From the IMG/VR virus record IMGVR_UViG_2537562020_000004: a DNA stretch of 26,889 nucleotides. One strand, written 5' to 3'. Source of the DNA: a virus. Its lineage: Duplodnaviria; Heunggongvirae; Uroviricota; Caudoviricetes. Of this stretch, positions 1-380 are shown in pieces. The notes beneath the pieces were generated by a model. The model was not told where the DNA came from. It saw only the letters and a program-made list of their open reading frames with translations, and searched no databases. Position 1 is the first letter of the stretch. Every line of letters starts with the position of its first letter. The translations under genes were made by a program, and so were the position numbers.

Positions 1-222
1 GCCCATAATGCGGGCAGTTGCCCGGCATCCAACGCCATTCATGGCCATATCAATGATTTTCTGGTGCGTACCGGGTTGAGAAGCGGTGTAAGTGAACTGC
101 AGTTGCCATGTTTTACGGCAGTGAGAGCAGAGATAGCGCTGATGTCCGGCAGTGCTTTTGCCGTTACGCACCACCCCGTCAGTAGCTGAACAGGAGGGAC
201 AGCTGATAGAAACAGAAGCCAC
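1..222 (-). CDS. insA: IS1 InsA, N-terminal 74 codons (3' end cut by the window edge)
   Basis: GTG start (rc of 220-222). Translation is [74 protein letters not shown], the zinc-finger N-terminus of InsA. The track ORF 39..251 is in a different frame. Confidence 0.85.
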
Positions 223-254
223 TGGAGCACCTCAAAAACACCATCATACACTAA

Positions 255-277
255 ATCAGTAAGTTGGCAGCATCACC
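255..277. repeat. IS1 terminal inverted repeat (IRL, 23 bp)
   Basis: The rc is GGTGATGCTGCCAACTTACTGAT. It abuts yfiR coding sequence at 278. Confidence 0.85.
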
Positions 278-380
278 TAATGACGTCAGATTTGCCGTAA
301 ACCTGGATGCCTTATCGCGTAGCGGTGTAAAGGTCAACCCGGATGTCTTAATGCTCGCACGGAAGAAAAATGATGGATAA
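278..380 (+). pseudogene. yfiR: yfiR 3' remnant (last 33 codons plus stop), severed by IS1
   Basis: The frame ending at TAA 378-380 reads [33 protein letters not shown], which I recognise as the YfiR C-terminus. The stop overlaps the dgcN start, as in the yfiRNB operon. There is no 5' part because IS1 begins at 277. Confidence 0.8.

Follow-up and report, generated by a model that had tools for sequence, protein, structure and literature searches.

Truncation of yfiR by IS1 ahead of intact dgcN and yfiB in Escherichia coli, with a probable IS1 adjacent deletion

The IS1-yfiR junction and the genes behind it

The stretch of DNA analysed here (IMG/VR record IMGVR_UViG_2537562020_000004, 26,889 nucleotides; hereafter the window) is the entire draft contig AQCZ01000071.1 of assembly GCA_000354315.2. 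It begins inside a copy of the insertion sequence (IS) element IS1, which has truncated the Escherichia coli gene yfiR, continues with dgcN (yfiN) and yfiB, and ends in a prophage. The products of the three genes form the YfiBNR system, which couples periplasmic redox and envelope stress to cyclic di-guanosine monophosphate (c-di-GMP), biofilm matrix, motility and cell division. Within this system YfiR represses the diguanylate cyclase DgcN, and cells with high c-di-GMP are enriched in yfiR transposon mutants of E. coli (PMC13031359).

Positions 1..277 hold the left part, with insA, of an IS1B-type element on the minus strand; it runs off the contig start, and its far end lies outside the window. 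The terminal left inverted repeat (IRL), GGTGATGCTGCCAACTTACTGAT, occupies 255..277 on the minus strand with 23 of 23 positions exact; read from 277 to 255 it has no mismatch, it is found at a single site in the window, and none of 100 shuffles matched it. InsA residues 1-74 are encoded, stop-free, at 222..1 on the minus strand, and the precomputed Pfam assignments of this fragment are Zn_ribbon_InsA and HTH_Tnp_IS1. Both a repeat of about 23 bp and an insA reading inward from it, as is usual for the IS1 family, are thus present. A candidate insA promoter-like site on the minus strand (CTGCCA-16-TATGAT, 270..243) was picked up by a consensus scan. At the same locus in strains E1535, M9682-C1 and TUM9803 the IS1 is 768 bp long, with a transposase annotated with a programmed frameshift; over its 277 bp the window is identical to E54 (277/277) and differs from E1535 solely at position 16. 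The original prediction, made from the letters of the window, had placed the end of the IRL at 277 against about codon 139 of yfiR and had insA pointing away from dgcN, and both statements hold, with the last base of codon 139 at position 278.

What is left of yfiR lies at 278..380 on the plus strand and, in translation against the wild-type YfiR of strain JKHS016, consists of codons 140-172 with the stop codon, preceded by the final base of codon 139. The remnant (NDVRFAVNL...KKNDG-stop) equals residues 140-172 of the 172-residue wild-type protein, covers positions 116-143 of the 143 of PF13689 (YfiR/HmsC) and no more, and has neither a start codon of its own nor a signal peptide; in relatives RefSeq labels it as a YfiR/HmsC pseudogene, 'incomplete; missing N-terminus'. 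Because only residues 140-172 remain, without start codon or signal peptide, the periplasmic repressor YfiR certainly cannot be made, whichever form of the allele (see below) is present. The truncation proposed earlier is real, and so is the overlap of the remnant with the start of dgcN, as the yfiR stop at 378-380 lies beyond the dgcN ATG at 370, just as in the wild type; the coordinates, reading frame and orientation stated in the original prediction are likewise all correct.

The two other genes are intact. The dgcN gene (370..1596, plus strand) is an open reading frame (ORF) of 408 codons for the inner-membrane cyclase, with a periplasmic CHASE8 sensor domain at residues 45-146 (Pfam, E 1.3e-33) and a GGDEF domain at residues 249-403 (E 1.5e-43) in which the GGDEF motif is present. 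It is followed by yfiB (1612..2094, plus strand), an ORF for a 160-residue OmpA-like outer-membrane lipoprotein with the lipobox LTGC and a Pfam OmpA match (E 1.2e-17). The DNA of both genes is the same as in E1535 and JKHS016 (products WP_000969032.1 and WP_000589847.1, respectively). Of the YfiBNR module, DgcN and YfiB are thus present, and a YfiR of about 172 residues with PF13689 and a signal peptide is missing.

Both contig ends are of the typical repeat-bounded kind, the start lying inside a multicopy IS1 and the end in phage tail-fibre genes, and a draft contig that begins inside such a repeat could have been misassembled, with yfiR intact in the real genome. This is extremely improbable, since the contig crosses 277 bp of IS1 into yfiR without a break and since the identical junction is found elsewhere. 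In a census of 5,426 complete E. coli genomes with positions 1-420 of the window as query, the exact junction was present as one colinear piece in 41 (only single-piece matches were counted; the number rises to 52 if multi-piece joins of other nearby IS1 insertions are included). With one colinear piece in 41 complete genomes, the IS1-yfiR junction, judged by this comparison, is not an assembly artefact. A second, intact copy of yfiR elsewhere, which had been named as a possible complication, is unlikely on sequence grounds because the 5ʹ part of yfiR occurs at no more than two places per genome and never on a plasmid; it is absent from 48 complete genomes.

Forms of the allele and its probable origin

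To sort the junction-bearing genomes we used a query spanning yfiL-IS1-'yfiR-dgcN-yfiB, and the left side was examined in 37 of the 41. In 28 of them yfiL'-IS1-'yfiR-dgcN-yfiB is colinear in a single 2,785-bp piece, which we call the deletion form. Its left flank, read in E1535, M9682-C1 and E54, runs ...GCCAGCACAATACG and then enters the right inverted repeat (IRR) of IS1 inside yfiL codon 119, without a target duplication. Relative to the wild type it has lost 575 bp, namely the last three yfiL codons with the stop, the 149-bp yfiL-yfiR intergenic region and yfiR codons 1-139, and yfiL is turned into a 125-residue fusion that ends in IS1-encoded residues. Sources listed as human or as diarrhoeal stool account for 24 of the 28 genomes, and three are named O6:H16; examples are B2C, TW10598, E1649 (LR882973), M9682-C1, FORC_031, E1535, E54 and E66. 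At least 11 are tabulated as ST-4 (sequence type 4), CS2+CS3 members of lineage 2 of enterotoxigenic E. coli (ETEC) (PMC13212926).

Eight other genomes (TUM9803, AR_0085, JSMCR1, ET896, LR-27, E3, ECCWS199 and EC21Z-063) have a locus that exceeds this by about 582 bp. Here the order, for which we read the sequence of AR_0085 and TUM9803 and the annotation of JSMCR1, is that of a simple insertion: yfiR codons 1-141, IS1 and the remnant, with an 8-bp duplication of TAATGACG. The copy of this target site in the window lies at 278..285 (no strand assigned), and its duplicate stands beyond the IS1 in the simple-insertion relatives. In AR_0085 the flanks read ...CACAATAATGACG before IS1 and TAATGACGTCAG after it, and the wild-type overlap is 3001-3008 both there and in TUM9803. 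The two forms can be told apart by their far junctions, ...GCCAGCACAATACG joined to GGTAATGACTCC in the deletion form versus ...CACAATAATGACG joined to GGTAATGACTCC in the simple one, the IRR sequence of IS1 being GGTAATGACTCCAAC. The remaining genome of the 37, FG92-1, has the right junction unchanged and the left junction at yfiL codon 100.

These observations modify the picture given by the original prediction, which had expected an 8-9-bp target duplication at 278-286 and the 5ʹ part of yfiR beyond the far end of the IS1. A duplication does exist in the simple-insertion relatives, of 8 bp (278-285) and not 9, and there is none in the deletion-form relatives; the window itself contains one IS1 end. 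In the closest genomes yfiL codon 119 stands beyond the far end, and the 5ʹ part of yfiR is gone together with the intergenic region. The larger rearrangement that had been named as the finding that would speak against the insertion is thus present in the closest relatives, though it is small (575 bp), and it strengthens the conclusion that yfiR is dead while shifting the odds toward dgcN having been cut off from the operon promoter.

We propose that the allele arose in steps. IS1 would have inserted in yfiR with an 8-bp duplication, as is still the case in TUM9803, AR_0085 and the genomes of the JSMCR1 group; this element would then have attacked nearby DNA with its IRR end by intramolecular replicative transposition, with the loss of 575 bp, and the IS1 would have been retained in place without a target duplication. 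Adjacent deletions by IS1 are described as leaving the IS without direct repeats (review PMC9330008), and the deletion-form relatives show the same features: the IS is kept, the right junction is constant, the DNA between is lost and direct repeats are missing. The left junction lies at yfiR codon 141 in the ancestral state, at yfiL codon 119 in 28 genomes and at yfiL codon 100 in FG92-1. Across these flanks the IRL junction stays where it is and the IRR junction varies, the pattern left when deletions extend from a single end of an IS; two IS1 copies that recombined by homology would yield an indistinguishable product.

The IS1 itself has also changed at this site. In the E54 group (four ETEC genomes with the same junctions) it is a mosaic that departs from IS1B at 42 positions; apart from position 16 they all fall in the two-thirds of the element on the insB side (window-equivalent -400 to 16). 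This pattern points to gene conversion among IS1 variants while the site stayed fixed. A 1-bp deletion in the IRL, 12 bp from its tip (TTGGCA to TTGCA, window 266), is shared by inheritance among 10 genomes, six of them confirmed simple insertions; the IS end concerned is probably disabled by it, and the outward -35-like hexamer lost.

Which of the two forms the strain of the window carries has to be judged from its similarity to these relatives, and we consider it very probable that it is the deletion form, because of perfect matches over positions 1-420, the lack of the IRL deletion and the prophage shared with E1535. Four genomes alone (E54, E1316, E1648 and E1654) are 100% identical to window 1-420, and all four have the deletion form; the other 37 differ at one position at least. 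Position 16 is A in the window, the innermost variant (that nearest the IRL) of the mosaic IS1 of the E54 group, and G in every locus read among the non-identical genomes. Among the junction-bearing genomes, E1535 alone shares the prophage of the window behind yfiB, and it is again a deletion form.

If the strain instead had the simple insertion, TAATGACG, yfiR codons 1-141 and the native upstream region would lie beyond the IS1, and the operon promoter would read into it. Eight complete genomes with the identical right junction show that such a state exists, and the two forms cannot be told apart by the 1.9 kb of chromosomal sequence that the window contains. We nevertheless regard it as rather improbable here: position 16 is G rather than A in the three simple loci whose sequence was read, all eight are at least one base off the window within 1-420, as opposed to the four perfect matches with the deletion form, six of the eight carry the 1-bp IRL deletion that the window lacks, and the sole genome combining the junction with this prophage has the deletion form. 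Several points weigh against our assignment. The upstream flank of this strain lies outside the window; position 16 is 15 bp from the contig end inside a repeat and could be a collapsed consensus of several IS1 copies; in a wider collection YfiR(1-141)+G was found on 155 contigs versus 80 for the yfiL'-IS1 fusion; and JKHS016, which has a wild-type yfiR, shows 4 differences from the window among 7,723 overlapping bases, while its match across 23,858 bases is displayed as 100.0%. As JKHS016 has a near-identical phage at the same site, the prophage was rejected as a marker of the lineage.

Transcription of dgcN-yfiB and the state of DgcN

With the deletion form, dgcN-yfiB would now stand behind 768 bp of untranslated antisense IS1 DNA, without a recognisable promoter of their own. 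Their transcription would probably be weak and would come from read-through out of yfiL, subject to Rho-dependent polarity, or from a poor hybrid promoter made of the IRL and its flank. IS1 is classically strongly polar in both orientations. The RNA between the stop of the yfiL fusion and dgcN is untranslated over about 750 nt, with C exceeding G over the first ~440 nt, and such an antisense IS1 transcript is plausible as a Rho substrate on the basis of its composition; no intrinsic terminator was found on the plus (operon) strand across IS1. A consensus scan with a threshold of 9/12 found no plus-strand promoter-like site in window 1-380. Read from the sequence, a candidate weak hybrid promoter, which we put forward as a hypothesis, lies at 264..292 on the plus strand and pairs TTGGCA of the IRL with CAGATT of yfiR at a spacing of 17 bp; at 8/12 it falls under the threshold of the scan, and its -10 matches 3/6.

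Any DgcN made would be free of YfiR and so blind to redox and YfiB input. We lean towards the view that the sensory module has been decommissioned in this lineage, that is, that it has no repressor, no signal input and weak constitutive expression, and that it would make at most a low constitutive contribution to c-di-GMP rather than cause strong derepression. The original prediction had rightly listed both derepression and polar silencing as outcomes of the insertion, and the sequence fits either.

Derepression would take place if enough dgcN transcript arose from the hybrid promoter or by read-through; DgcN would then be constitutively active and c-di-GMP measurably raised, with more matrix and adhesion, less motility and altered division responses. 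Loss of YfiR, which inhibits DgcN directly in the periplasm, does activate the cyclase and raise c-di-GMP in E. coli (PMC13031359, PMC4992967), and disruption of yfiR enhances cellulose and biofilm (PMC4992967). DgcN has no autoinhibitory I-sites and is described in PMC10127611 as the most robust of the E. coli cyclases. In the window neither dgcN with its ribosome-binding region nor yfiB is damaged, and transcription towards dgcN meets no intrinsic terminator in IS1. A promoter could be supplied by the sequence TTGGCA-17-CAGATT at 264-292, as IS1 ends are known to form fusion promoters (PMC9330008). The second changes seen in other yfiR::IS1 lineages (the AR_0085 dgcN frameshift, the E66 substitution G87E and the TTGGCA deletion of the JSMCR1 group, see below) could be compensation for such activity. 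On the other hand, the candidate promoter reaches 8/12 and its -10 is poor, the upstream intergenic region has probably been lost in full, the untranslated leader ahead of dgcN is long, and IS1 polarity acts in either orientation. Moreover, native DgcN levels are already low, and deletion of yfiR alone does not bring about growth arrest (PMC10127611). Weighing these points together, we regard derepression as possible if somewhat unlikely.

The preferred reading of a decommissioned module has its own difficulties. The scan also finds no plus-strand promoter in the wild-type yfiL-yfiR intergenic region, so it has little power, and for the same reason, with nothing found either at the junction or in the wild type, the promoter scan was rejected as an arbiter of expression. 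Deletion of the promoter is presumed from position, not from a mapped start site. The documented fusion promoters at IS1 ends speak for some expression, and even weak YfiR-free expression of so robust a cyclase could matter. Finally, wherever the annotation of a deletion-form locus was read, both dgcN and yfiB proved to be intact, which fits continued use. The lineage is too young for this to be a real test, however, and conservation of dgcN and yfiB was rejected as a sign of selection, since an intact 1.7 kb is uninformative in a lineage so young and clonal.

The 2.7-kb locus has been hit by IS1 more than once. IS1 lies somewhere in yfiL-yfiB in 103 of the 5,426 genomes, in the orientation of the window in 74 and in the opposite one in 29, and 16 mapped loci resolve into at least 10 separate insertion sites, among them yfiL, five in yfiR and three in dgcN. 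Five of ten mapped sites fall within 170 bp at the end of yfiR and the start of dgcN, which is locally AT-rich (79th-94th percentile); this clustering is consistent with the known target preference of IS1 and needs no selection. Two apparent regularities were rejected. An orientation bias was suggested by the 13 differently placed insertions retrieved first, all alike, since the search joins pieces of one strand, and a control with reversed IS1 found the 29 genomes of opposite orientation. A hot spot produced by selection was considered from the 103 genomes versus about 28 expected naively (median of 10 IS1-matching places per genome), a comparison that is meaningless under clonal inheritance. 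The IS1-bearing genomes include strain HS, whose yfiR is annotated as intact; some genomes have IS2 in dgcN; and in CH468 the insertion is at dgcN codon 4-7, with a derivative, 2018-02-2CC, deleted back to yfiL.

Among the carriers of the insertion described here, a second hit at the locus was seen in all that were examined except TUM9803: the 575-bp deletion (28 genomes), the larger deletion of FG92-1, the 1-bp IRL deletion (10 genomes), a frameshift in AR_0085 and a substitution in E66. The AR_0085 change is a 1-bp deletion in a GGGG run at dgcN nt 890, annotated as frameshifted, which may be a long-read sequencing error. E66, of ETEC lineage 2, has DgcN G87E in the periplasmic CHASE8 domain (equivalent to window position 629); eight other listed genomes have one mismatch each in the same 500-bp stretch. 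One could speculate that loss of YfiR is costly in natural E. coli and is repeatedly offset by nearby changes that tune DgcN down, an idea to which we give little credence; the pattern is equally compatible with neutral decay. If it were true, a major ETEC lineage including B2C and TW10598 would have gone through a high-c-di-GMP state and then silenced it.

Neighbouring prophage, significance and comparison with known systems

Between yfiB and the end of rplS lies a GC-rich hairpin (2113..2144, no strand assigned) whose 14-pair stem leads into a run of T on the minus strand; from its structure it is likely to be the terminator of both convergent units, and its sequence is also found in genomes without the prophage. 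In phage-free genomes rplS follows 76 bp after yfiB. Here a 186/P2-like prophage, integrated in the last codons of rplS, fills the window from 2172 to 26889 and carries genes for integrase, CI, CII, Fil, the GpA replication endonuclease, portal, terminase, capsid, lysis and baseplate/tail proteins. Its attachment core AGTTAAGACGCTC at 2172-2184 restores the end of rplS at attR, with a TGA stop in place of TAA. The contig end (26135-26889) lies in the tail-fibre genes, with a 285-bp offset relative to E1535. In E1535, P2-type phage genes (Cox, integrase) are also present beside pheL, upstream of the yfi locus, and the contig could have broken off at repeats common to a pair of prophages of this kind.

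Three genes of the prophage may be mentioned. The 269-codon ORF at 2547-3356 (plus strand), between the attachment site and the integrase gene, had no Pfam match in our scan, has a weak YopA_C match on record and gave weak PADLOC matches to HEPN-type models (RTasHEPN, E 1.2e-4); it is possibly a phage cargo or defence gene, to judge from these matches. The 334-codon ORF at 11859-12863 (minus strand) adjoins the portal gene and has no Pfam or PADLOC match; this is a position in which P2-like phages often carry variable cargo. A pentapeptide-repeat protein of 291 residues (21816-22691, minus strand; Pentapeptide_4, E 3.9e-19) is encoded on the opposite strand amid the tail and baseplate genes. 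The window and E1535 differ at 11 positions, including 6085, 7930, 8448, 13525, 15968, 19562 and 21523, of which eight are G in the window versus T and one is C versus A; owing to them the GpA protein of the window is unique in the collection. JKHS016 also has T at both of these positions that were checked, and the G-for-T differences may be private changes or the signature of a systematic error of the draft assembly.

A full-text literature search (yfiR with IS1; dgcN with insertion) found no paper describing this allele, and a long-read study of ETEC lineage 2 mentions neither IS1, yfiR nor dgcN (PMC13212926). The isolates of that lineage, B2C and TW10598 among them, are dated 1971 to 2014 (PMC13212926). 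A yfiR-null allele fixed in a long-lived ETEC lineage would mean that the YfiBNR input is missing or rewired there. Consequences are conceivable for adhesion, for persistence and for the way such strains behave in challenge models, and findings made in K-12 or uropathogenic E. coli should be extended to ETEC with caution. Both B2C and TW10598 have been used as human challenge strains. With its two diagnostic junction sequences the allele is, in addition, a convenient marker of the lineage.

The events proposed here are of classical kinds, a knockout by IS1 followed by an IS1 adjacent deletion; this instance is already annotated as a pseudogene and is otherwise undescribed in the papers found. 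As in the adjacent deletions of Turlan and Chandler (1995), in the form in which they are cited in PMC9330008, the IS is retained, one junction is fixed, the other has moved and the direct repeat is lost, with the difference that here a comparison of natural genomes, not an observed event, points to the deletion. The classical IS1 polarity mutants of gal and lac share with our allele a 768-bp IS1 in the first gene of an operon, an 8-bp duplication in the ancestral form and intact downstream genes behind untranslated IS DNA. In the present case the upstream DNA has probably been deleted too, so that polarity alone would not be at work. Fusion promoters generated by IS elements, including IS1 with blaTEM-1 and acrEF (PMC9330008, Table 1), are matched by an outward -35-like TTGGCA, 8 bp in from the IRL end and directed towards dgcN; the -10 here (CAGATT, 3/6) is poor, and the pair may well be non-functional.

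The closest functional counterparts are mutants that have lost the repressor and kept the cyclase gene intact: small-colony variants of Pseudomonas aeruginosa (PMC2837407, PMC3375315), E. coli K-12 yfiR::kan and transposon mutants (PMC4992967, PMC13031359) and, as far as it is cited in PMC4992967, the CFT073 yfiR deletion of Raterman (2013). Laboratory mutants, however, were built or selected in such a way that yfiN stays expressed, for example with a cassette oriented against polarity, which is not so for the natural allele. In the latter the upstream promoter region is probably gone and IS1 stands before dgcN, and the phenotype may be the opposite of that of the laboratory mutants, or null. 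Should the second hits in E. coli prove to be compensatory, they would be a natural replay of the compensatory dynamics of yfiR and yfiN in P. aeruginosa from cystic-fibrosis lungs.

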